A stretch of DNA of 58,893 nt from Patescibacteria group bacterium (GTDB lineage: Bacteria; Patescibacteriota; Minisyncoccia; Minisyncoccales; PEYH01): the NCBI GenBank assembly GCA_018817645.1, contig JAHITK010000005.1, forward strand, positions 1 to 58,893, read 5' to 3'. Both the position numbers and the translations under genes were made by a program. Each line of letters starts with the position of its first letter. Position 1 is the stretch's first letter. The notes under the pieces are model-generated. The model did not search any database. It had not been told where the DNA came from and saw only the letters and a program-made list of their open reading frames with translations. This document shows, one piece after another, positions 4,047-41,961 of the stretch.

Positions 4047-5224
4047 AAAAAACATTTATTTTAAAAATTTTATTTCCCATAATTTTGATTATTATCGGAA
4101 TTTTCGTTTTTAGCTTTGGCTATCGCTATGGCTATGACCAGATTCCGCAGCCGCCCGAAGGTCTGCCGGCTGGCGTCGATTTTACTTTATTATGGGATGT
4201 ATGGCATAAGCTTGAAGAGAAATATTCGGGCGAGTTGGATTATCAGAAAATGATTTACGGCGCCGCCGAGGGGTTGGTAAGCGGTTTGGGAGACCCCTAT
4301 ACGGTATTTTTCAATCCGGAGGACAGCCAGATTTTTAAAGACGATATTTCCGGCTCTTTTGAAGGGGTGGGAATGGAAATAGGAATCAGAAAAGGGGAGT
4401 TAACAGTAGTGGCTCCGCTGGAAGGCACGCCTGCCCAGAAAGCCGGGCTTTTATCAGGCGATATTATTGTTAAAATAGGCGATACTTTTTCCCGCGACAT
4501 TACCGCAGACGAAGCAGTCAAGCTTATTCGCGGACCGCAGGGAACAGCCGTCAATCTTACCATTTACCGCGAGGGATGGAGCGACAGCAAAGTGTTTGAA
4601 ATCGTCAGAGGGGTGATAAAAATTCCTAATGTCCAATGGGAGATAATTGGTAAGGATATAGCGAAAATAAGGGTTTATCAATTTTCAAGCGGTCTTGATT
4701 CGGATTTTTCCAAGATGGTCCCTGAAATTTTGAAGTCGCCGGCCAAGAAGATTATTTTGGATTTGCGCAACAATCCGGGAGGCCTTTTATACGAAGCCCA
4801 ACTGATGGCCGGCTGGTTTTTGAAAAAAGGCGAATTAGTCACCATTGAGAGTTTTGGCGAGGGTAAAGAAGAGAGGGAATATCGGACAACAGGAAAGGAA
4901 TCTCTGCTCAATTATCCGATTGTCGTTCTGATAAACCAAGGGACAGCGTCCGGAGCGGAAATTTTAGCGGCTGCCTTGCGCGACAACCGAAATGATGTAA
5001 AATTAGTAGGAGAGAAGTCGTTCGGCAAGGGCTCGGTCCAAGAGCCGGTAGACCTGCGGGGGGGCTCGCTTCTGAAAGTCACGGTGGCTCATTGGCTTAC
5101 GCCTAATCGGGATATGATTAATGAGCTGGGGCTTACGCCGAATGTGGAGGTTAAAATAACAGAGGAGGATTATAATAATGACCGGGATCCCCAATTAGAC
5201 AAAGCCATAGAATTATTGAAATAA
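4043..5224 (+). CDS. C-terminal processing protease, S41A family
   Basis: PDZ domain, DLRNNPGG, TASGAEI, SFGKGSVQ. Confidence 0.95.
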   Translation: MKKTFILKILFPIILIIIGIFVFSFGYRYGYDQIPQPPEGLPAGVDFTLLWDVWHKLEEKYSGELDYQKMIYGAAEGLVSGLGDPYTVFFNPEDSQIFKDDISGSFEGVGMEIGIRKGELTVVAPLEGTPAQKAGLLSGDIIVKIGDTFSRDITADEAVKLIRGPQGTAVNLTIYREGWSDSKVFEIVRGVIKIPNVQWEIIGKDIAKIRVYQFSSGLDSDFSKMVPEILKSPAKKIILDLRNNPGGLLYEAQLMAGWFLKKGELVTIESFGEGKEEREYRTTGKESLLNYPIVVLINQGTASGAEILAAALRDNRNDVKLVGEKSFGKGSVQEPVDLRGGSLLKVTVAHWLTPNRDMINELGLTPNVEVKITEEDYNNDRDPQLDKAIELLK

Positions 5225-5227
5225 TTA

Positions 5228-5340
5228 AAAGAACCTGCTCGCTTCGCTCCTGCCCGCATTGCTACGCCAGCCCGCAGTAGATACAGCGTTTCTGGCGGGC
5301 AAAGCGTTGCAGGCGGGCGCAGAACCTTGATTCGCTAAGG
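5228..5340 (+). repeat. GC-rich element B, copy 1 (113 bp, nested palindromes)
   Basis: Identical to reverse complement of 58664-58777 except for one 1-nt indel. Confidence 0.95.
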
Positions 5341-5354
5341 TATAAATATATATT
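5327..5354 (+). promoter_or_regulatory. Putative rplI promoter TTGATT-N16-TATATT; the -35 lies within element B
   Basis: Same geometry is reproduced at copy 2. Confidence 0.5.
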
Positions 5355-5361
5355 TTGAATT

Positions 5362-5829
5362 ATGAAGGTAATCCTTTTAAAAGACATCGATAATTTGGGA
5401 AAGAAATACGAGGTAAAGTCCATTAAAAATGGTTATGCCAGGAATTTTTTGATTCCCAATGGTTTGGCAAAACCGGCGACCGCGTCGGCCATGGCCGAAC
5501 TTAAGGAAATTAAAGAGAGAGAGGAGAAGACGGCTGAAGAGCATTTGATTGAAACGCAGAAAATTGCTTCAAAGCTTGACGGTCAGGAAATTGAGTTTTT
5601 AGTCAAAACCGGGGTGGACGAACAATTGTTTGAATCAATCACTTCCCTGAAAATCTCTAAAAAATTAGGAGAGATGGGATTTGAAATAAAAAAAGACCAG
5701 GTTATCCTGGAAAAGCCGATAAAAGAATTAGGGGAGTTTCCGGTGAAAATAATCCTTGACCACCATTTGGAGGCCAAGATTACTCTTATTGTTGAATCAG
5801 AAGCGCCAAGCGAACCAGTTGGAGAATAG
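5362..5829 (+). CDS. rplI: 50S ribosomal protein L9
   Basis: MKVILLKD...GYARNFLIP signature. Confidence 0.97.
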   Translation: MKVILLKDIDNLGKKYEVKSIKNGYARNFLIPNGLAKPATASAMAELKEIKEREEKTAEEHLIETQKIASKLDGQEIEFLVKTGVDEQLFESITSLKISKKLGEMGFEIKKDQVILEKPIKELGEFPVKIILDHHLEAKITLIVESEAPSEPVGE

Positions 5830-5832
5830 CTA

Positions 5833-6105
5833 CTATTCCACGGACACTATTTTTGCTCTTCTTTGGGTCCCGTTGAATCTTTTTATGCGTTTGGTTGAAA
5901 ATTTGACCAAACCTTCTTTGTTTGCGTAGAGAGTATCGTCTTTCCCTTTTTTCACATTTTTACCAGGCACGTATTTGGTTCCTCTTTGTCGCACAATAAT
6001 CATTCCCGCTTTGATTTTTTGGCCAGCGTTAACCTTGACCCCGAGATATTTGGGTCTTGAATCTCTCCCTAAACTTGTTGAGCCAGAAGATTTTGTTTTG
6101 GACAT
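5833..6105 (-). CDS. rpmA: 50S ribosomal protein L27
   Basis: [20 protein letters not shown]. Confidence 0.97.
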
Positions 6106-6123
6106 ATTAGAATGTGTTAGCGA

Positions 6124-6145
6124 GCCAGCGCATTTATGCGCTGGC
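6124..6145. repeat. Palindrome GCCAGCGCAT-TT-ATGCGCTGGC
   Basis: Perfect 10-bp arms, about 18 bp upstream of rpmA start. Confidence 0.7.
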
Positions 6146-6164
6146 GAGCGTTACAGATTCTTAT

Positions 6165-6262
6165 ACCCCGCCCCTTCTACCTCTCGGACATATCCAGTAT
6201 CAATAATCTTTTTAATGAAGAGGATGTATGTGATAATTTCCGAAATCTAGAAGGGGCGGGGT
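6165..6262. repeat. 15-bp perfect inverted repeat ACCCCGCCCCTTCTA with a 68-bp partly self-complementary spacer
   Basis: Arms at 6165-6179 and 6248-6262. Confidence 0.85.
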
Positions 6263-6306
6263 CAAGAGTTTCTAAATTCAGGATTTGCCCTCATTAAGAA
6301 ACTACT

Positions 6307-6456
6307 ATGATGCTATCAAGAATTATTAAATTAGTCAATAAAAATAAAGAGATTATTCTTTTGGCTTTGATAGTATTTCTGGCCAGTTTGTTTGTTTTTT
6401 CTCTGGTCTGGATTTTATTAGAACTCGGGCAAACTAAGCCGATTGAAATATATTAA
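6307..6456 (+). CDS. Small single-TM protein (49 aa, below ORF-track cutoff)
   Basis: Manual translation MMLSRIIKLVNKNKEIILLALIVFLASLFVFSLVWILLELGQTKPIEIY. Confidence 0.6.
   Translation: MMLSRIIKLVNKNKEIILLALIVFLASLFVFSLVWILLELGQTKPIEIY
6310..6338 (-). promoter_or_regulatory. Putative rpmA promoter TTGACT-N17-TAGCAT
   Basis: Consensus spacing. Confidence 0.5.
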
Positions 6457-6474
6457 ATCGCTTGATTTTAAAAT

Positions 6475-6650
6475 AGAACATGGGCGCCTCACTGTTCCGG
6501 AGTATGTCCGGAAGAAGTTGAAGGCGCCCAGGCCTGTGGTCGAGTCAGTCGGCGAACGGGCGGTTTAGGAGGCCACCGCGGGAGGAGCTTGCGCTCCAGT
6601 CAATTCTGCCGCTTTTTGTCGAACGCCGCATCGTCGCTGTCGCAGGTTAT
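6475..6650 (-). ncRNA. Candidate structured RNA
   Basis: GC-rich island after promoter CTGACA-N17-(TGg)TAATAT at 6683-6655; hairpins GGAGC-GCAA-GCUCC, GCGGU/ACCGC, GGGCGCC/GGCGCCC enclosing UUCCGGA/UCCGGAA. Confidence 0.35.
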
Positions 6651-21967: not shown

Positions 21968-23077
21968 TTAAAAATTATTTTTGGCGTGTTTTGATATGTT
22001 CAGCAGTAAACCGATTGCGATTAGCTCCATTACCAGATGAGAGCTTCCATAACTCACCAAGGGCAGCGGGATTCCGGTAAGGGGCAAGAGGCCTATCATA
22101 GCGCCGATATTAATAAATGCTTGCAGGGTGAGCCAAGAAGTAATCCCGATTGCCATAAGCTTCAAAAATGTTTCCGAAGATTGCTTCGCTATTTTGAATC
22201 CCTGCCAAGCGAATATCAAGAATAATAATACCAATATAATAGCTCCGATAAATCCGGTTTCCTCGGCAAATACCGCGAAGATACTGTCAGTCATTGGTTC
22301 AGGAAGAAAGCCGGCTTTTTGGACACTTAGTCCAAGCCCGTGTCCTATTATGCCGCCGGAGCCGATGGCGATAAGGGCCTGCTTCATCTGGTATCCGATT
22401 CCTAACGGCTGGGCCGCGGGGCGCAGGAGGACCAGAAACCGATTTAAACGATAAGGCGCGGTTTTGATTAATATGGCCAATGCCCCGATTCCGGACAAAA
22501 TCAGCAGACCGGTTTGCCAAAGAGGAGTTTCAGCGCTGAAATACATCACTAAAGTAATGGCGGCAATCGTGACCAAGGTGCTGATGTCCGGCTGTTTGAT
22601 TAACAAGGCGCAGACAACGGCTAAGATGATTATGAACGGCAGGAATAATTGGACGCTCTTTTTGCGCTGTTCTTTATGTTTAGTGAGCCAGGCGGCCAGA
22701 TAGATAATAAATATCAGTTTTAATAATTCAGACGGCTGAATCACAATAGGGCCCAGAGCGACCCAGCGGCTTGCCCCGCCTGTTGATACGCCGATTTTTG
22801 GCATAAAGACCAGCCCCATCAAGACGATGACAATAAAGAGCGCGGGCAAAGATATTTTTCTTAATGATTTTAAATTGATCTTATACGCCAGGAAGCCCAG
22901 GATAAGCCCGGGAAGATAGCCGTATTCTATTTGGTGCATCAGGAACTGGAAAGAGTGGCCGAAAATTTTTTGGGATACTGTGATGGAAACGCCGGCCAGG
23001 ATAGCGAATCCTAAAAGCAATAAAAGAGAGATGGTTGCCGAAAGGATGAAGTCAGGATGATTTTTTTGTTTTTTCAT
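21968..23077 (-). CDS. ftsW: SEDS peptidoglycan polymerase FtsW
   Basis: GGASRW, QPSE, QPD, TDSIF, GIPLPLVSYG. Confidence 0.93.
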   Translation of the reverse strand: MKKQKNHPDFILSATISLLLLLGFAILAGVSITVSQKIFGHSFQFLMHQIEYGYLPGLILGFLAYKINLKSLRKISLPALFIVIVLMGLVFMPKIGVSTGGASRWVALGPIVIQPSELLKLIFIIYLAAWLTKHKEQRKKSVQLFLPFIIILAVVCALLIKQPDISTLVTIAAITLVMYFSAETPLWQTGLLILSGIGALAILIKTAPYRLNRFLVLLRPAAQPLGIGYQMKQALIAIGSGGIIGHGLGLSVQKAGFLPEPMTDSIFAVFAEETGFIGAIILVLLFLIFAWQGFKIAKQSSETFLKLMAIGITSWLTLQAFINIGAMIGLLPLTGIPLPLVSYGSSHLVMELIAIGLLLNISKHAKNNF

Positions 23078-24441
23078 TTAGTGAATTGCTTAACGAATTT
23101 TTGGAATTGGTCTCCCCTGTCTTTGTAATTTTTAAATATCCCAAAACTGGCGCAGGCTGGCGACAAGGCGCAGATTTCTTTTGGTGCAGTGTATTGATAG
23201 CAAAACCTTACCGCCTCTTTCATATTGTCTACGAAGATAAATTTTGGCTTTTCGTCTGTTTCCCCCAAGGTCTCCATAACAGCTTGTTTAATCCTCTTTC
23301 CGGCCGGTGGGAAAATAATCGCTGTTTTAATCCGATGCTTAATGATTGTCTTAGCAAGCGCGGAGAAATTCAATCCCCTTTCGTGTCCTCCTAATATAAT
23401 AGTTCGAGGTTTAATCGCCTTGATGGCGCTTATGGCGGCAATCGGCTCGGTGGCAAAACTGTCGTCATAAAAAATGATTTCTTTGAATTTTCCTATTCTT
23501 TGCAGGCAATGCTTTTGGGTTCGGTAATGAGCGATTGATTTTCTGATTTTAGGGAGAGGAATATTGAATAACCGGGCAGCGCAGACAGCCGCCATTATGT
23601 CGTAGAGGAAGTGTTCTCCTGGCAGGTGAATGTCTTTTAATTTTATAACCCTTTTACCTTGGTAAAATATGGCCTCCTGGTTGAAATAGCAGTCATTTGA
23701 ATTATCCTTGCCAAAAGCGATTTTTTTGGCTTTGGTTTTTCCCGCCAAGGTTCTCAAGCGGGGAGAATCAGAATTGAAGATAAAGAAATCGTCCTTTTTC
23801 TGCCAAAGAGTGATATTCTTTTTTGCCGCAAAATATTCCTCGATGTCTTTGTAATAATCCAGATGAGCTTCGTGGGCGTTCAGGAATATGGCGATATGGG
23901 GGCTGGTTCCGAGGTCCTCTAATTGTTGGGAGGATATTTCAAAAATGAATGTTTTTTTGGATTTTCCGTCTTTAAAATAATTTAAAACCGGCTTCCCGAT
24001 ATTTCCGATAAGCTCTGCCTCCCGATGGCTTTCTTCAAAAATTTTAGAAAGCAAACTTACGGTCGTCCCCTTGCCTTTGGTGCCGGTTACGCCGATGGTC
24101 TGTTGAGAGTAATTTTGCAGAAAAATGTCGGTTTGCGAAGTAGTAGTTTGCTTCCCGGAAACATAGGGCGCGAATATTTTTTTCGGGAGGCCCGGGGTCT
24201 TGATTATAACCTCGTAATCCCCTATTGATTTCAAATAATCTTTCCCTAAATGCAGTTTTATGTTCTCATCCTTTTTTATTTTCCTTTTCAGCGTTTTTGC
24301 CAATTCTTTGAATTCTGATTTGTCTGCCAGGCCAATGATTTTGTCAAAGAAAATCTTCCGCAGGAATTTAAAACTTGACTCCCCTTCCCGGCCAAGCCCC
24401 AAAATCAAAATCTTTTTGTTTTTCAGTAAATTTATCCTCAC
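23074..24441 (-). CDS. murD: MurD ligase (probably MurD2, L-Glu-adding)
   Basis: GLGREG, GVTGTKGKGT, SPACASF; murL nearby. Confidence 0.9.
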   Translation of the reverse strand: MRINLLKNKKILILGLGREGESSFKFLRKIFFDKIIGLADKSEFKELAKTLKRKIKKDENIKLHLGKDYLKSIGDYEVIIKTPGLPKKIFAPYVSGKQTTTSQTDIFLQNYSQQTIGVTGTKGKGTTVSLLSKIFEESHREAELIGNIGKPVLNYFKDGKSKKTFIFEISSQQLEDLGTSPHIAIFLNAHEAHLDYYKDIEEYFAAKKNITLWQKKDDFFIFNSDSPRLRTLAGKTKAKKIAFGKDNSNDCYFNQEAIFYQGKRVIKLKDIHLPGEHFLYDIMAAVCAARLFNIPLPKIRKSIAHYRTQKHCLQRIGKFKEIIFYDDSFATEPIAAISAIKAIKPRTIILGGHERGLNFSALAKTIIKHRIKTAIIFPPAGKRIKQAVMETLGETDEKPKFIFVDNMKEAVRFCYQYTAPKEICALSPACASFGIFKNYKDRGDQFQKFVKQFTK

Positions 24442-35196: not shown

Positions 35197-35273
35197 ATTT
35201 TGTATCCTATATTCGTATTTTATCCAGCAGTTTTATGTTTTATATTATAACACAAAATCCTCATTTTGTCGCA

Positions 35274-35332
35274 ACGAGGCCCGGCCTCGTAATCTTCATA
35301 ATGGCTTATTGTTAGGGTCGCACCCTAACAAT
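35274..35332. repeat. Two REP-like palindromes with 5-nt loops
   Basis: ACGAGG-CCCGG-CCTCGT (35274-90) and ATTGTTAGGG-TCGCA-CCCTAACAAT (35308-32); the second contains the fba stop codon. Confidence 0.75.
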
Positions 35333-36176
35333 TGGTGCCGGAGAGTTTAATTTTTTCTTCTACTTTGTCCTGAATGTCTTTTATCACAAAAGGCAAAATT
35401 TTGTAAGGTTTAATCGTTTGTTTTTTCAAATGCTTGAGCATTGATTTTTTCCACACCTCTCTCAATTCAGTATTAATGTTTATTTTCACAACCCCATTTT
35501 TAATAGCTTTTTTAATATCATTATCATTTGTTCCGGAACCGCCGTGCAAAACCAGAAAAACATTGAGTTCTTTATTGATTTTTTTCAACAAATCAATGTT
35601 CAGCCGTATTTTATTCTTGTATGTTCCGTGAACATTGCCAATATTTATCGCCAAGGAATCAACGCCAGTGGCTTGCACAAACTTTTTCGCTTTTTCTATA
35701 TCCTCATAAAACGACTCTTTTGCCTTAAATTTCTTTTTATGAGTTTCCGAACTTCCTTTGATTGATTTGATTTCCCCCTCCACTAAGACCCCTCTTTGAT
35801 GGGCGTATTGGACAATTTTTTTGGCAGTCTCAATATTCTGTTTAAGGGACAAGTCGCCTCCGTCAAAATGGACGCAATCGTAGCCCATATCAATTGCTTT
35901 TTTGATAAGAGCAATATCTCTGCCGTGGTCCAAATTAAGATAAATATAGGGAAATATTTTTCTGTAATAGTTTCTTAAAATAATCGCCTTTTTTAAACCA
36001 AAGAATTTCACTTCTCCTCCGCTGGTGCCGAGAATGACCGGCGCCTTGGCTTTCTCAGCCGCTGAGATGATTGCTTTCAATTGTTCCGATGTGGAAAAAT
36101 TGAATTGTCCTATCGCCCACTTTCCCCTTTTGGCTTTTTGTAAAAAATATTTAAGAGATTCCTTTTTAGAGCGCAT
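35325..36176 (-). CDS. fba: Class II fructose-bisphosphate aldolase
   Basis: LNLDHG, GNVHG, VLHGGSG, KININT. Confidence 0.92.
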   Translation of the reverse strand: MRSKKESLKYFLQKAKRGKWAIGQFNFSTSEQLKAIISAAEKAKAPVILGTSGGEVKFFGLKKAIILRNYYRKIFPYIYLNLDHGRDIALIKKAIDMGYDCVHFDGGDLSLKQNIETAKKIVQYAHQRGVLVEGEIKSIKGSSETHKKKFKAKESFYEDIEKAKKFVQATGVDSLAINIGNVHGTYKNKIRLNIDLLKKINKELNVFLVLHGGSGTNDNDIKKAIKNGVVKININTELREVWKKSMLKHLKKQTIKPYKILPFVIKDIQDKVEEKIKLSGTNC

Positions 36177-37107
36177 ATTTTTTAATTTTAATTTTGCGGT
36201 ATTTCTGACCCTTTTTTAATAATCCGTCTTTGGCTCCCCATTCCTTGATGCAGGCAGCGGTATTGGCGCTTCCAAGTTGGATTGCCTCAATTATGTTCTT
36301 CTTATTTATCAATCCTGCCACCAACCCTGAGCCAAAGGCGTCACCCGCTCCGGTCAAATCAGCAACCTTGCTTCTGAAAACCTCGCCTTTATAGATAAAT
36401 TTCCCGTCAAAAGCCATTAACCCCTGTTCTTCGCCGGTCACAAAAAGTCCTTTCAAAAATGGCTTTATCTCCAGAAAAATATCCTCTGTTTTGCGGCTTC
36501 CAAAAAGCATTTTCGTTTCTTTTTCATTGGTAAGCAGGACATCAATTTTCGGCAAAAGGGCTTTAATTGATTTTTTATACAATTCAATTTGTTCTTTGCC
36601 CGGATTGAAAGCCACTTTTATCTTGTTCTGGTGGGCGAAATCGATAATTTGTTTTGTTTTTCGGGCGCATTCCCCTGAAAGCGGAGCCAAATAAAACCAG
36701 TCCGCCCGCAGTTTATTCAGATTGAAATTTTTAGGAACATAATTGGAAGCGTCCCGATAAACTAAAATAACTTTGCCTTTTTCTCTCTTACTAAGAATCA
36801 CCGAGTGATTGGTCGTTTTGCCAGTCAGAGAACTCAAAAATTCCGTTGATATTTTATACCTTTTCAAATCCAGCAGGACCGAAAAGCCGGCATAATCTTT
36901 CCCAACGCTTCCGCAAAAAGCAGTTTTTAGGCCTTGCTGGGCAAAGGTGGCGGCGGCATTGGTTCCCCCTCCGCCGGTGCGGATTATCAATTCGTCCATT
37001 TCTATCTTGTCGCCCAAAGGAAAGCAAAGTTTCCGGTCAAAAAATTCTTTGGAAAAAACAAAGATGTCTTCGCTGGCAGAACCAAATGTTATCACATCAT
37101 ATTTCAT
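36166..37107 (-). CDS. PfkB-family carbohydrate kinase
   Basis: GGGGTNAA, DLTGAGDAFGSG. Confidence 0.92.
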   Translation of the reverse strand: MKYDVITFGSASEDIFVFSKEFFDRKLCFPLGDKIEMDELIIRTGGGGTNAAATFAQQGLKTAFCGSVGKDYAGFSVLLDLKRYKISTEFLSSLTGKTTNHSVILSKREKGKVILVYRDASNYVPKNFNLNKLRADWFYLAPLSGECARKTKQIIDFAHQNKIKVAFNPGKEQIELYKKSIKALLPKIDVLLTNEKETKMLFGSRKTEDIFLEIKPFLKGLFVTGEEQGLMAFDGKFIYKGEVFRSKVADLTGAGDAFGSGLVAGLINKKNIIEAIQLGSANTAACIKEWGAKDGLLKKGQKYRKIKIKKYAL

Positions 37108-37113
37108 AGATTT

Positions 37114-37134
37114 TGCCGAGATCGTTTCTCGGCA
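37114..37134. repeat. REP downstream of RAYT: TGCCGAGA-TCGTT-TCTCGGCA
   Basis: Direct reading. Confidence 0.9.
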
Positions 37135-37138
37135 GATT

Positions 37139-37873
37139 TTATTCTATTACTACCTTTTCAAAATCGACTAATTCTTTTTTAAATTTGAGCCAACTATTAA
37201 CAAATTCTCGACAACTATCTGCGCCTTCCATTATTTTGTCTAAAAATTTTCTATTTGTCAAAGAAGGGAAATTTTTCTTCCCCAAATAATCTAGATAACT
37301 TGACCATTTATACTTATTTTCTAAAAAATTGACCGCCCCATTTATGTCCTTGATTTGTATTCCTTTATTTTTCCATCCCGGGATTATCAATGATATTGGG
37401 TTCGTATGAATATAAACAAACACGGTTTTTAATTGTCCTTCTGTACTGACACGAACTATCCGGTATCTTCCCTGAAAGAGATGCCCGTTTCTTTCATATT
37501 TTTTATTATAATAACCGCTATATCCCGCTCCAATCTTATGCATTAGTTTGCTGATTCCGTCATTTCGGATCTGTTTTATTAATAGATGAATATGATTTGG
37601 CATTAGGCAAAATGCCAAGATTTCTACTAAGGGTTTTCTCTTTTTTCTATCCCCGCCGAAATTCCTGTCGAGAGTTCCGCCGAGATCATTTCTCGGCGGA
37701 GATAAATTTCTTCTGTAATCCCTATCTGTTGGGTTTTCGTCATTAAATTCAAAAAGATTGTTTATCATTCGAAAATAATCTTTTTCGCTACGAAAAAGAT
37801 CTATCCCTTCTATAGTTCGGGTGACAATATGATATATTTCTCCATTTACTATTTCAGGCCTTTTTAACGGCAT
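37139..37873 (-). mobile_element. REP-associated tyrosine transposase (RAYT, Y1 HUH / IS200-like)
   Basis: YHIVTR, FCLMPNHIHL (HUH), FQGRY, YIHTNP (catalytic Tyr), WSSY. Confidence 0.9.
37676..37700. repeat. REP inside the RAYT ORF: TCCGCCGAGA-TCATT-TCTCGGCGGA
   Basis: Same family as the flanks; degenerate partner at about 37653-37673. Confidence 0.85.
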
Positions 37874-37894
37874 TCATTTATTGTTCATTGAATT

Positions 37895-37915
37895 TGCCGA
37901 GAAATGATCTCGGCA
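37895..37915. repeat. REP upstream of RAYT: TGCCGAGA-AATGA-TCTCGGCA
   Basis: Loop inverted relative to the other copies; followed by GGCAGATTT duplication (37912-37929). Confidence 0.9.
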
Positions 37916-37932
37916 GATTTGGCAGATTTTTC

Positions 37933-40900
37933 TTAATGATTTTTACCCTTTAAGTCCACTAATGTTTTGACAACCGCGTCAGGACTTAAAGACATTGACC
38001 CGATTCCCTCTTTTGCCAGAAATTCCGCAAAATCGACAAAAGTTGAAGGAGCATCCCCGCAAATGCCGACATATTTTTTCCTTGCCAAACATTTTCTTAT
38101 CACTATTCTCAACAATTCCTTCACTGCCTCATTTCTTTCATCTGTGATATGGGAGATTTGGGCATTGTCCCTGTCCATTCCCATAGTCAACTGCGTAAGG
38201 TCGTTGGAACCGATGCTCATTCCGTCAAAAATATCCAAAAACTTATCAGCCAAAATTACATTAGACGGAATTTCGCACATTACATAGGCCTTTAATCCGT
38301 CTTTTTCCTGCTTCAGGCCGAATTTCCCCATCAAGTCAATTACTTTTGCCCCTTCTTCAGGAGTGCGGCAGAAAGGCACCATCACGGAAACATTTTTCAA
38401 CCCGAAGACATCTCTCACTCTTTTAATCGCTTCGCATTCCATTCCAAAAGCAGGCGCAAATCTTTCATCATAATACCGCGAAGCGCCTCGCCAGCCAATC
38501 ATCGGGTTTTCCTCAATCGGCTCATACTCTTGTCCGCCTATCAGTTGGGCATATTCATTGGTTTTAAAATCAGAAAATCTGACAATTACCTCCTGTGGAT
38601 AAAAAGCAGCAGCAATCTGGCCGATGCCCTCTGCCAGTTCTTTTATAAAGAATTCTTTTTTATCCTTATGCTCTATGGTTATTTCTTCAATTTGCTTTTT
38701 TAATTTCCCGCCCTTCATCTTATTGAAATTGTAGAGCGCCATTGGGTGGCATTTGATTTTTTGGGCGATGATAAACTCTTCTCGGGCCAAACCCACTCCC
38801 TGCACCGGCAAAAATGATGTTTTGAAAGCCAATTCCGGCGCCCCGATATTAACGCTTATCTTGACTTTGGTTTTCGGCACTTTTTTGAGATTGTATTCCT
38901 TAACCTCATAAGGGACTTTCCCGGCATAAATTTTGCCCTTTAATCCCTGAGTGCAATCAACCGTAATATATTGTCCTGTTTTTAAGACCTTAGTCGCTTT
39001 TTCGGTGCCCACGATGCAAGGTATGCCCAATTCCCGGCTGACAATCGCGGCATGAGCGGTTTTAGAACCCTCGTCGGTCACGATAGCCGAAGCCATTTTC
39101 ATAATCGGCACCCAGTCAGGGTCGGTCATCTTAGTGACCAAAATCTCCCCTTTCTTGAATTCACTCATCTTCCTTACATTAGAAACAATTCGCGTTTTTC
39201 CCTCGCCGATTTTATCCCCAATGGCAATACCTTTAAGAATGGGCTCTGTTTTGGCATTGATAGAATATTCTGTATAAGTTGTTTTCTTTTCCGAGCGATG
39301 GATTGTTTCCGGCCTTGATTGGACAATGAAAAGTTTGCCGGTTTTTCCGTCTCTGGCCCACTCCAAATCCTGGGGCATCCATTTTTTATTCAAACCGGAA
39401 TAGTAATCCTCAATTTTGCAGGCCCATTTCGCCAAAGTAATAATATCATTGTCAGACAAAGAAAACTTCAATTGCTGTTCCTTGTTCACCGGCACTTCTT
39501 TTAACCCGCCCTTGGCGTTGTAGACAAGTTTTTTTGTTTTCCGACCAAGATTTTTTACGATTATTGACTTATATCCTTCTTTCAAAGTGGGTTTGAAAAT
39601 AAAGAATTCGTCGGGAGTAATTTTCCCTTTGACAATCATTTCTCCCACCCCCCAAATGGAATTGATAAGAACTACATTCGGAAAGCCAGTTTCTGTGTCC
39701 AAAGTAAACATCACTCCAGATGAACCGATCCCCGAATTAATCATTTTTTGGATCCCGACCGATAAAGCAATCTGCAAATGGTCAAAGCCCTTCTCCTGGC
39801 GGTAAGCAATGGCTCGGTCGGTAAAAAGCGATGATACGCACTTTTTGACCGCTGTTAGAACTTCTTGCTCGCCCGAAATGTTGAGATAGGTTTCTTGGGC
39901 GCCCGCAAAAGAAGCAGTATTGTGGGTCATAATCCCCCCCACTCCGGCGGCAAAATTTTGCGTCCCCGGGACGATAAAATCATAAACAAAACCAGAATAT
40001 TTAATTGCCTCAATTCTTTTAATTTTATCCCAAAGAATATCGGTATCTATCAAATCCAATAATGGTTTTGATTTCATGTCTTTGGCTATTTTCTTCAGAT
40101 ATCTAACCCCATAGGTTCGCAGCGATTTTCTATTACCTTTATTCCATGGCTCTACTTCTTTTTTGAATCTACCAAGATGGTCATAGTTTATGTATTTTTG
40201 GATTATCCTTGTTTTCAGCGGTAGATTAGTTTTCTCTGAGACGCTAAAACCACAGCGCGCGCACTTATAGCGATTAACCCTTCCTATATTATTGGTTCTA
40301 TATGCCCCCCCCCGACATAACGTCGCGCCGCATTTGGGGCAAACAAATCTTTCAATTTGTTGCAACTCAACCTTTGGCCTTAAACTCTCCTCCATGAGTT
40401 GGGCAATTTTTTTGCTTGCCGGAATGGTATCAATAAAGTCCTGGTGTTTTTTAATCTTATCGAATTTTTTTATAAATTCCTTTAATTTGTTTTGTCGGCT
40501 TTCGGAGCTGAATCCGATTAGCTGTTGAAATTTTTTCGCCTCGCTTGCCGGGATAAGAATTTGAGAACATTTTTTCGTAATGTGGTATCTTATCTGGAGC
40601 AGCTCCAAGAGTTTTGCCGTACCGCCAATCAACTTCTTAGACAGAGAAGCATAACCTATGTGAGATTTTTCAATCCAACCATCCCCGTCAAATAAACCCT
40701 TTAGAAACTCGCCGATTATTTCTTTGGGTTGGCTAAAAATAAATTCGGGCACATATTTCGCCTTGCAGGACCTCCCCTTGCCCTTGAAAGGAAGGGCCTC
40801 CCCGCTGATATTTTGAAGCAGGACAGCTAAGACCGCATTTTGCAGTCTTACTTTTCTTTTATAGTTAAGCTTTCCGGATTTGTAGCTGCCAATCGTTTTA

Positions 40901-41913
40901 TAAAAATTTCTGACCCGGGCAAGGACCTCTTTTGTGTCGCAGGAGATATCGATACAATTCTTTTTTTCATAAATTGAACCCTCTGCCAAATAAACGCCTA
41001 AGAAATAAGCAAAATCCTTGTTTATTTCTATTCTTTCCGGCAAGCCGTATTGTTGGTCAAGCGTATTCTTTTGATTTATTGTCACCCTGCCGTTGTAAAT
41101 TATTATATCCTTATTTTTAATAGTTTCTTTTACATTTAAAAATCTTGCTCCGTTGCAGGGTAAGGGTATAAATTGTGTGGCCGGCACCCGCGTGTTTTCA
41201 TTAACCTTATCTATAGACGAGATTTTAGTACTGAATGTGTCGGGGTCTAAAACTAATAAAGAATGATTAGGGGTAATAGTAATTTCTCGCCCAGATTTAG
41301 TGGTTATTTTATATAATTTTTTGTTTGCAGCAGGGTGTCTATAAATATCTTCAATTTTACACCACTCAATTTTATTATTTCCATTAAGAGAGGGCACAAA
41401 AATAGGATCTTTTATCTCACCGCCTTTTAACAAATTAAAGAGTTTTTCTATTTCTATGTATTTTATAGTATTGCCTGTCTTTGCAAAAACCATTTCATCG
41501 GCTGCAATGCTTGGCAGGTCTTCCGCAGTCGCGGAACTGCGCACCGCGACAATCACATCCTTTTCCTTGTAAATCTGGCAAAGTTTTTTGTAATACTTAA
41601 TGATTTTTCTTTCCAATTTCTTGGGGATTTCCGCTCCCAAAATCAGTTCTCTGGATTTCTTGCCTGTTTCCTGTAAGTTTTTAATATCATCGGGTTTAAA
41701 ATTTTTAAAAATTTCTTTTAATTGGTCATAGACCCCGGTTTCTTTGAGAAAATAAAAATAGGCGTGGGAAGTAAGGGCAAATCCATTGGGGATATTTATC
41801 CCCTCAGGAACCAAATGCCTGAACATTTCGCCGAGAGAGGCGTTTTTTCCTCCCACCAAAGGGACATCTTTAATTCCAATGTTTTTAAACCAAACAATAT
41901 ATTTTTTAAACAT
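37933..41913 (-). CDS. ppsA: PEP synthase precursor with intein (about 795 aa after splicing)
   Basis: VGGKNASLGE, AVRSSATAED, SKTAHAAIVSRE, GWRGASRY; start moved to ATG 41913. Confidence 0.95.
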   Translation of the reverse strand: MFKKYIVWFKNIGIKDVPLVGGKNASLGEMFRHLVPEGINIPNGFALTSHAYFYFLKETGVYDQLKEIFKNFKPDDIKNLQETGKKSRELILGAEIPKKLERKIIKYYKKLCQIYKEKDVIVAVRSSATAEDLPSIAADEMVFAKTGNTIKYIEIEKLFNLLKGGEIKDPIFVPSLNGNNKIEWCKIEDIYRHPAANKKLYKITTKSGREITITPNHSLLVLDPDTFSTKISSIDKVNENTRVPATQFIPLPCNGARFLNVKETIKNKDIIIYNGRVTINQKNTLDQQYGLPERIEINKDFAYFLGVYLAEGSIYEKKNCIDISCDTKEVLARVRNFYKTIGSYKSGKLNYKRKVRLQNAVLAVLLQNISGEALPFKGKGRSCKAKYVPEFIFSQPKEIIGEFLKGLFDGDGWIEKSHIGYASLSKKLIGGTAKLLELLQIRYHITKKCSQILIPASEAKKFQQLIGFSSESRQNKLKEFIKKFDKIKKHQDFIDTIPASKKIAQLMEESLRPKVELQQIERFVCPKCGATLCRGGAYRTNNIGRVNRYKCARCGFSVSEKTNLPLKTRIIQKYINYDHLGRFKKEVEPWNKGNRKSLRTYGVRYLKKIAKDMKSKPLLDLIDTDILWDKIKRIEAIKYSGFVYDFIVPGTQNFAAGVGGIMTHNTASFAGAQETYLNISGEQEVLTAVKKCVSSLFTDRAIAYRQEKGFDHLQIALSVGIQKMINSGIGSSGVMFTLDTETGFPNVVLINSIWGVGEMIVKGKITPDEFFIFKPTLKEGYKSIIVKNLGRKTKKLVYNAKGGLKEVPVNKEQQLKFSLSDNDIITLAKWACKIEDYYSGLNKKWMPQDLEWARDGKTGKLFIVQSRPETIHRSEKKTTYTEYSINAKTEPILKGIAIGDKIGEGKTRIVSNVRKMSEFKKGEILVTKMTDPDWVPIMKMASAIVTDEGSKTAHAAIVSRELGIPCIVGTEKATKVLKTGQYITVDCTQGLKGKIYAGKVPYEVKEYNLKKVPKTKVKISVNIGAPELAFKTSFLPVQGVGLAREEFIIAQKIKCHPMALYNFNKMKGGKLKKQIEEITIEHKDKKEFFIKELAEGIGQIAAAFYPQEVIVRFSDFKTNEYAQLIGGQEYEPIEENPMIGWRGASRYYDERFAPAFGMECEAIKRVRDVFGLKNVSVMVPFCRTPEEGAKVIDLMGKFGLKQEKDGLKAYVMCEIPSNVILADKFLDIFDGMSIGSNDLTQLTMGMDRDNAQISHITDERNEAVKELLRIVIRKCLARKKYVGICGDAPSTFVDFAEFLAKEGIGSMSLSPDAVVKTLVDLKGKNH
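39919..41511 (-). mobile_element. Intein (531 aa) with LAGLIDADG homing endonuclease and C4 Zn-ribbon
   Basis: EDLP|SIAADEM...YDFIVPG...THN|TASFAG; LGVYLAEGS and FLKGLFDGDG. Confidence 0.93.
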
Positions 41914-41919
41914 AAAGCA

Positions 41920-41961
41920 ATTATCAATCAATGATTATTGATTAATGATTAATGATTGGAT
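41920..41961. repeat. Heptamer tract (ATTAATG type) overlapping the acdA 3' end
   Basis: Six 7-bp units. Confidence 0.7.

Follow-up and report, generated by a model that had tools for sequence, protein, structure and literature searches.

A RAYT-like gene of a Patescibacteria genome carries, in frame, a copy of the REP hairpin that flanks it

The locus, its hairpins and the predicted enzyme

We analysed a 58,893-nt stretch of DNA from a Patescibacteria group bacterium (hereafter the window; contig JAHITK010000005.1 of assembly GCA_018817645.1, positions 1 to 58,893), whose assembly comprises 665 kb (a 0.67-Mb genome) in 28 contigs with a G+C content of 41.8%. The subject of this report is a gene in the window that resembles those of REP-associated tyrosine transposases (RAYTs; REP, repetitive extragenic palindrome), together with the REP hairpins that lie on either side of it and inside its coding sequence. 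The original prediction, made from the sequence of the window, described a Y1-HUH transposase with palindromes on both flanks, their loops in opposite orientation, and a longer-stem copy of the same palindrome within the gene; the Pfam match, the motifs and the coordinates all agree with this description. The features of the locus are as follows.

37139..37873, minus strand: RAYT-like Y1/HUH enzyme gene, an open reading frame (ORF) call of 244 aa
37895..37915, no strand: 5' flank REP hairpin, TGCCGAGA-AATGA-TCTCGGCA, 21 nt upstream of the start codon
37676..37700, no strand: internal REP hairpin, TCCGCCGAGA-TCATT-TCTCGGCGGA, with a 10-bp stem that is longer than the flank stems
37651..37675, no strand: decayed REP-like partner, coding strand ACTCTCGACAGGAATTTCGGCGGGG, read as ..LDRNFGG (inverted repeat I19, direct repeat D14)
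37114..37134, no strand: 3' flank REP hairpin, TGCCGAGA-TCGTT-TCTCGGCA, 4 nt past the stop of the RAYT-like gene and 6 nt before the start of pfkB

The protein contains the motif YHIVTR at residues 14-19, the HUH motif as H94-I-H96 and a catalytic-type tyrosine, Y154, in YIHTNP (Y154-IHT-N158-P159), and it ends in a helical C-terminal extension with the motif WSSY. It matches Pfam Y1_Tnp (PF01797) with 48.1 bits against a cut-off of 23, and the alignment takes in residues 82-157 only because a linker of ~35 residues, inserted between the N-terminal strand/helix that bears YHIVTR and the strand that bears HUH, splits the domain. With the NCBIfam equivalog model REP_Tyr_transpos (NF047646) the score was 45.9 bits, which is below the curated cut-off of 80. 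Among 100 aligned relatives, H94, H96, Y154 and N158 do not vary, and P159 hardly does. When the PDB was searched by sequence, either with a profile or with the single protein, no match was obtained, and matches came from the fold search alone. The AlphaFold2 model, which was built from a 100-sequence alignment, has a predicted local distance difference test score (pLDDT) of 89.5 and a predicted template modelling score of 0.85, and its best PDB match by Foldseek is 4ER8_A (E 1.2e-5, target TM-score 0.65, 12% identity across the aligned fold), the structure of the REP-associated tyrosine transposase of E. coli in complex with a REP hairpin. The top matches (4ER8, 2A6M, 2XQC and 2A6O) each have a probability of 1.00, the TnpA proteins of IS608 and ISDra2 coming after 4ER8. 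Overall, profile, motifs and predicted fold all place the protein in the Y1/HUH superfamily, and the gene product is probably a RAYT-type HUH/Y1 single-strand DNA nuclease-ligase with the GCCGAGA-N5-TCTCGGC hairpin as its cognate substrate.

The two flank hairpins form an inverted repeat (I1) with 25-nt arms that are 92% complementary, and the 5' copy is inverted relative to both the internal and the 3' copies, which are co-oriented. On the coding strand the internal hairpin reads TCT CCG CCG AGA AAT GAT CTC GGC GGA, that is SPPRNDLGG at residues 58-66, in frame, exactly as the original prediction had read it. The degenerate tandem partner that it had named (RNFGG) was likewise recovered: it adjoins the internal copy, aligns weakly to the REP in pairwise alignment, and its left part could also form base pairs with the intact hairpin's right arm. 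Both hairpins lie between the YHIVTR and HUH motifs, and the neighbouring genes ppsA and pfkB are on the same strand, as was also claimed. The GCCGAGA-N5-TCTCGGC palindrome occurs three times in the window, where 0.08 occurrences are expected, and none of 100 shuffles reached three. In minimum-energy folds of single-stranded DNA, the expected hairpin is formed by each flank copy and, whichever strand is folded, by the internal copy, with folding energies of -8.8 to -13.5 kcal/mol (z -2.9 to -5.0). On the plus strand, which is antisense to all genes here, each flank REP is followed by a T-run (37112-37146 and 37888-37932) and scores as intrinsic-terminator-like; this score is absent on the coding strand.

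Covariation of the internal hairpin with the flanking REPs across relatives

As a test, the original prediction proposed to see whether, in each homologue, the internal palindrome agrees with the flanking REP of its own gene and varies along with it. A protein search gave 1,921 homologues, and the peptide motif was studied in the best 120 of these (55-82% identity); the relatives are annotated as Patescibacteria (Nealsonbacteria, Parcubacteria, Minisyncoccales). Most of the best 120 homologues have a six-residue motif at the same linker column, and the residues at its two ends are matched exactly in the way that a palindrome translated in frame imposes (P-R[TN]VL-G, T-RTVL-V, A-RTVL-A, S-RTVL-D and T-GSDP-V). 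For the comparison of DNA, 80 loci were fetched with their flanks from species-representative genomes, and the counts given here cover 83 loci, in each of which the linker (~120 nt) was compared with the 300-nt flanks and scored for an exact shared run of at least 17 nt. Such a run is shared between the linker and its own flanks in 51/83 loci (63/83 if a run of at least 12 nt is accepted), compared to 5/830 when the same test is applied to the flanks of other loci and 2/83 when the N-terminal coding part is compared with its own flanks as a control. The expected covariation was thus found. The shared runs are typically 19-30 nt long and span stem, loop and outer arms, and, since they take in the loop and the outer arms, they point to copying and not to mere compatibility of binding. 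The hairpin itself varies from locus to locus (TGCCGAGAA, CTACGAGAA, TGACGGGAA, TATCGGGGA, CTAACGGGGT, GGGCGAGG, TGTTTAGAGGT, ATATTCGGACTT and others), and on neighbouring branches it changes by stepwise, paired substitutions (..CGAGAA to CGGGAA to CGGGGA to CGGGGT). Variation of the same kind is found within a single Nealsonbacteria genome, where the paralogues L015, L016 and L021 each have a linker hairpin with a distinct core; the match to the own flank is 29-30 nt in L015 and L021, and in L016 only a 14-nt run with a 6-bp stem core. Because the covariation test was passed so strongly, the internal copy is neither a one-off nor a protein motif. Judged from the sequences of its relatives, it is a family-wide, conserved, DNA-level feature, which co-diversifies with the enzyme and is near-identical to the flank copies within a locus.

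These results bear directly on the simplest alternative, namely that the palindrome is a coincidence or the by-product of a conserved peptide, for which the translation of the copy is the sole argument. The peptides are highly diverse (PRNDLG, TRTVLV, TGSDPV, GRGLPSP, EVGLP..), their end residues pair by base complementarity, and the DNA is identical to that of the non-coding flank copies, with three occurrences in the window against the 0.08 expected. We rejected this reading on the chance count, on the pairing of the peptide ends and on the own-flank versus cross-locus matches, and regard it as having practically no chance of being correct.

The position of the internal hairpin is also conserved: its centre lies at a median of 72 nt before the HUH codons (interquartile range 68-78). 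On a tree built from the proteins with the linker masked, Fitch parsimony maps the internal hairpin as present at the root, with 16 scattered changes, and 20-32 of the 83 loci are without a matching internal copy. The internal stem is often equal to or longer than the flank stems. Orientation relative to the flanks is inconsistent over the whole family (5' flank, 19 inverted versus 17 same; 3' flank, 13 inverted versus 19 same). In the subfamily of the window's gene (6 loci, L011-L015 and the query itself) the layout is regular, the 5' copy being inverted and the internal and 3' copies co-oriented; in the paralogue L021 both flank copies are inverted.

Several of these properties would be expected if the internal hairpin were a selected self-recognition site, which the enzyme binds or nicks in its own gene, on single-stranded DNA or on mRNA. 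In one variant of this proposal the enzyme would limit its own expression; in another, the gene would keep a protected master copy that reseeds or homogenises the REPs and keeps enzyme and target matched after transfer. The fixed position (~24 codons before HUH), the presence reconstructed at the root with retention in most clades, the length of the internal stem, the regular orientation in the query's subfamily and the three paralogues of one genome, each with its own hairpin core, are all in its favour. Set against these are the 20-32 of 83 loci that are without a matching copy, which include two of the three REP-flanked paralogues in the genome of the window, the use of a different site in some clades, and the finding, described below, that the REP is also translated, in frame, within tgt and supplies the tail of an unrelated ORF. 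Further, the internal copy here is a minority stem variant of the window's REP (CGCC..) and not the family consensus (TGCC..). We therefore consider self-recognition, in either variant, unlikely, though worth keeping in view.

A probably permissive linker, REPs elsewhere in the genome and the history of the locus

In the AlphaFold2 model, the residues encoded by the internal hairpin sit in the loop between alphaA and beta2, that is between the helix of residues 30-43 and the strand of residues 83-90. Mean pLDDT is 64, 45 and 69 for residues 51-60, 61-70 and 71-80, respectively, and is <50 for residues 61-72, and this REP-encoded loop is the sole poorly predicted internal segment of the model, the rest being >90. 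The linker is also not the only place in which a REP is translated. One clade without the linker copy has an in-frame REP ~10 residues past YIHxNP, with peptides such as YGGSTSI and YRGSTSI. Outside the window, on contig C27, an insert of ~40 aa divides the TGT domain (Pfam, 358 bits) of tgt, the gene for tRNA-guanine transglycosylase (5222-6475, minus strand), and contains a doublet of the window's REP with the in-frame reading AEIVSRRVAEKRSRQ; on the same contig a single REP forms the C-terminal tail PPRNDLGNPGN (..KPPRNDLGNPGN*) of a 261-aa ORF (22912-23697, minus strand). In a sister genome (G023, locus L130), the 5' REP forms the C-terminal tail of ppsA, ..SAEIVSRQD*. The syntenic orthologue of the RAYT-like gene in this sister genome is 86% identical, and the two coding sequences align without gaps except in the hairpin-bearing linker segment, where the sister has one imperfect REP and a partial copy, and the query one perfect and one decayed copy, with net 15-nt indels; as the single internal REP of the sister aligns ambiguously to the intact or the decayed copy of the query, our claim is limited to the confinement of the indels to this segment.

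In principle the hairpin could act as a structure in the mRNA, for instance by blocking translation, by providing an RNase site or by stabilising the transcript, independently of any recognition by the enzyme. In favour of this are the stability of the hairpin, whose G+C-rich stem of 10 bp falls in codons 58-66, and the known action of REPs at the RNA level elsewhere among bacteria (Di Nocera et al. 2013, PMC3733652). Mismatches in the internal stems, counted on the sense strand, comprise 6 G:T, 10 A:C and 33 others; as there is no excess of G:T, nothing in them points to selection on pairing in mRNA. Moreover, an RNA structure would not need loop and outer arms identical to those of the flank REPs, the orientation of the hairpin varies between loci, and no match was found in Rfam, apart from one sub-threshold small RNA match (E 0.71). 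We give this explanation very little weight.

Counted across the genome, as the original prediction had proposed, the window's REP is present at low copy number, with 10 full copies, of which 3 are at the RAYT-like gene and 7 on contigs C1 and C27. Their feet read ..AATC/ATTT-TGCCGAGA, and in none of the 10 copies listed with flanks does GTAG, GTGG or CGTC stand beside the stem on either strand. By tblastn the genome has three paralogues of the RAYT-like protein, with 42% (C16), 34% (C4) and 40% (C22) identity, and no identical copies of the kind expected of insertion sequences. The C16 and C4 paralogues are each flanked by their own REP family (TACGAGGC-CGG-GCCTCGTA and TGTTAGGGT-CGC-ACCCTAACA), with 32 and 34 full copies, respectively, which are often paired; neither of these two genes contains an internal copy of its own REP. 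Each of the three families is concentrated at its own RAYT-like gene: the copies that lie within 1 kb of the cognate gene number 3/10, 6/32 and 7/34 (20-30% in each family). At the C22 paralogue no flank REP was found, and no G+C-rich hairpin flanks it within 600 nt; this fourth Y1/HUH gene (C22:4988-5686, minus strand) has NHIH, WQGRY and YVELNP, is without the long linker, and by motifs resembles the REP-less subclass 2.1 / TIRYT type. Overall, the gene and its hairpins have the attributes of a REPtron: inverted cognate flank REPs, REPs dispersed elsewhere, and a low gene copy number with divergent paralogues.

Three further observations concern REPs at other positions. In the window, the spacer between the TrpRS and aldolase genes (35273-35331) holds one REP from each of the other two families, AACGAGGC-CCG-GCCTCGTAA at ~35273-35292 and TGTTAGGGT-CGC-ACCCTAACA at 35311-35331; from the latter the aldolase ORF (35325-36176, minus strand) takes its final codons and its TAG stop. 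On contig C27 (20770-20905) there is a half-REP array, which consists of CTGCCGAGATCAGAATC three times, a full hairpin, right arms of the TCTCGGCAACTT type and a second full hairpin; its appearance suggests that the hairpin was cut and rejoined, or underwent slippage, more than once, which may be informative about the copying of these REPs. A tandem duplication, GGCAGATTT GGCAGATTT, at 37911-37928 of the window takes in part of the 5' flank REP (its right arm) and continues into the spacer between ppsA and the RAYT-like gene, and is such an array on a small scale.

The two genes next to the RAYT-like gene are as follows.

37933..41931, minus strand: upstream neighbour ppsA (phosphoenolpyruvate synthase / PPDK family), 1332 aa, interrupted by an intein
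36166..37107, minus strand: downstream neighbour, pfkB-family sugar kinase, identified by domain match

The order ppsA-RAYT-pfkB recurs in the sister genome G023 of the same genus and in a genome of another genus (G004), in which the RAYT-like protein is 62% and PfkB 61% identical to those of the window, and the REP is GACGAGAA-cag-TTCTCGTC. In three further genomes of the window's genus (G022, G024 and G025; the loci compared are L126-L130), pfkB begins 6-45 nt after ppsA and the REP-RAYT-REP cassette is absent; these empty sites contain no gene, no hairpin remnant and no scar. Divergence of the RAYT-like gene tracks that of its neighbour, and the history of the locus fits vertical descent with clean losses, or scar-free excision. 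The intein of ppsA (Intein_splicing and LAGLIDADG_3 domains, roughly residues 186-671) is a separate matter: since ppsA is a frame of ~800 aa in the same three genomes (still open where the fetched sequence stops) and the orthologue in G023 has 804 aa and no intein domain, the sequences suggest that this lineage acquired it recently.

Presence or absence of the whole cassette between ppsA and pfkB within one genus, with scarless empty sites, would also be expected of an element that excises as single-stranded DNA in the manner of IS200/IS605. It could then be supposed that the internal hairpin is an alternative transposon end, which together with the co-oriented 3' hairpin of the query's subfamily delimits an excisable sub-element, made up of the two-thirds of the gene that encode the catalytic part. 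No truncated or duplicated form of such a sub-element was found, tblastn having given distant paralogues only; the orientation of the hairpins is inconsistent across the family, and excision of the sub-element would destroy the gene. An alternative end thus seems to us highly improbable.

Taken together, the results make it probable that the RAYT-like gene holds, in a permissive loop, a renewed member of its own REP population, for which a dedicated function is not needed. Under this explanation, the enzyme would bind and nick its cognate hairpins on single-stranded DNA, as RAYTs of the 4ER8 type do, and the internal copy would be an ordinary, active member of the REP population of that enzyme. 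It would have arisen early in this Patescibacteria family, at a position where 8-15 residues of any sequence are tolerated, and would have been overwritten or renewed repeatedly by the process that makes and homogenises the flank and dispersed REPs. Such a copying or conversion process would probably prefer to act in cis, near the gene, and selection would remove only those copies that break the frame or the fold. The expected outcome is near-identity of internal and flank copies within a locus and a hairpin that drifts stepwise with the enzyme between lineages; the constant presence in the gene of a copy of its own target would be a side effect and not a demonstrated function. We favour a tolerated copy because the loop is of low pLDDT, a second site exists, and REPs are in frame in tgt and in another ORF; because the stems have no G:U bias, the indels are confined to one segment and 20-32 of 83 loci are without a match; and because Quentin et al. 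2018 (PMC6006769) read the intragenic REPs of subclass 2.4 in the same way. The original prediction had gone further and suggested that the internal copy could enable self-cleavage or autoregulation and keep enzyme and REP family matched; no result supports a selected function of this kind, and some fit a tolerated copy better.

Some points count against a merely tolerated copy. The site is held over the whole depth of the family (38-86% identity) and is occupied in ~60-75% of loci, a persistence that exceeds what is expected of simple neutral passengers, so that selection for the internal copy is possible. The regular layout in the query's subfamily (6 loci) could reflect a mechanistic role. 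That both REP-flanked paralogues in the genome are without an internal copy means that deposition in cis does not by itself force one. Finally, cis-preference and REP-to-REP conversion are activities that we infer for these enzymes, and we know of no RAYT that has been shown to mobilise REPs in vivo.

Comparison with known systems and implications

In-frame REPs inside tnpA-REP genes were reported by Quentin et al. 2018 (BMC Genomics 19:475, PMC6006769) for subclass 2.4 and for some members of subclass 2.8, and were read there as tolerated insertions in a peripheral loop. TnpA-REP subclass 2.4, which is RAYT group 4 of Bertels et al., resembles the present family in that a Y1/HUH gene flanked by cognate REPs has frame-keeping internal REPs in a length-variable, peripheral-loop region. 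The insertion site differs, however: here the main site precedes HUH, in the alphaA-beta2 loop, and the second follows the Y motif. The protein described here has ~240 aa with FQGRY, YIHTNP and the WSSY extension, whereas subclass 2.4 proteins have ~194 aa with WQ and YIxNNP; from the subclass 2.4 signature (NH[IFV]H / WQ / YIxNNP, median 194 aa) it shares NHIH but not the remainder, and its hairpins are without the GT[AG]G foot. By motif only, the protein is nearer to subclass 2.1, for which that survey found no REPs. The host is a member of the Patescibacteria, which the text of the survey does not mention, and neither a locus-by-locus covariation nor a fixed distance to HUH, both quantified in the present analysis, was found in the passages of it considered here. 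A search of the literature for RAYTs together with the Candidate Phyla Radiation found no paper.

The best fold match is the E. coli REPtron enzyme TnpA-REP / RayT (YafM), 4ER8 (Messing et al. 2012, PMC3479197; Ton-Hoang et al. 2012), with which the present system shares the HUH and Y...NP motifs, a single copy per type, inverted cognate hairpins at the flanks and dispersed hairpins. It differs from the E. coli REPtron by the 12% identity of the proteins, the lack of a GTAG guide at the foot of the hairpin and an NCBIfam score of 45.9 bits, below 80. The enzyme here also has ~35 extra residues in the linker and ~80 at the C-terminus, and in this 0.67-Mb genome each REP family has only 10-34 copies.

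The TnpA proteins of IS200/IS605 elements (IS608, ISDra2) have the same Y1/HUH fold (Foldseek ranks 2-29) and recognise hairpins at both ends of the gene, and that the cassette is present or absent without a scar would agree with its excision through a single-stranded intermediate. Unlike these insertion sequences, the gene described here is not multicopy, its flank hairpins are mutually inverted, and the hairpins are also dispersed without the gene. To our knowledge, no hairpin inside tnpA is known for IS200/IS605 insertion sequences.

In-frame insertion is not confined to genes of this kind. Di Nocera et al. 2013 (PMC3733652) describe in-frame REPs in many ordinary genes, among them the intragenic GTAG/CGTC REPs, and these, like the palindromic elements of Rickettsia (RPEs), are translated as 8-30 extra residues in proteins that are still functional. 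The insertion in tgt and the C-terminal tails seen here are of this sort. Insertions in such ordinary genes are scattered, whereas the one in the RAYT-like gene recurs at the same site family-wide and tracks the target of the enzyme itself.

The original prediction had put the locus forward as a candidate for an undescribed system. In the light of Quentin et al. 2018 (PMC6006769), this holds in part: the lineage, the type of protein, the sites of insertion and the quantified covariation and fixed position set the locus apart, but in-frame REPs were already known, so that the layout extends a feature reported once before for related enzymes and the kind of system is not undescribed.

The family bears on how REPs and RAYTs stay matched in the long term, and on how REPs are copied. 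It offers, in the Patescibacteria, hundreds of natural replicates, in each of which one copy in the coding sequence can be compared with two at the flanks and a few dispersed ones, in genomes that are small enough for full enumeration. That the hairpin drifts step by step along the tree of the enzymes, and is nearly identical within each locus, is direct evidence of concerted evolution of enzyme and target. It is doubtful that the in-frame hairpin is a selected cis-element, by which a domesticated HUH enzyme recognises its own gene and limits expression or keeps a master copy protected from deletion; if this were true, the specificity of the enzyme and its target would co-evolve as one heritable unit, with the DNA serving as both code and substrate. 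A functional internal copy would thus be a rare case of a coding segment that doubles as the substrate of its own product, and an internal copy without function would be a clean example of permissive loops absorbing mobile palindromes.

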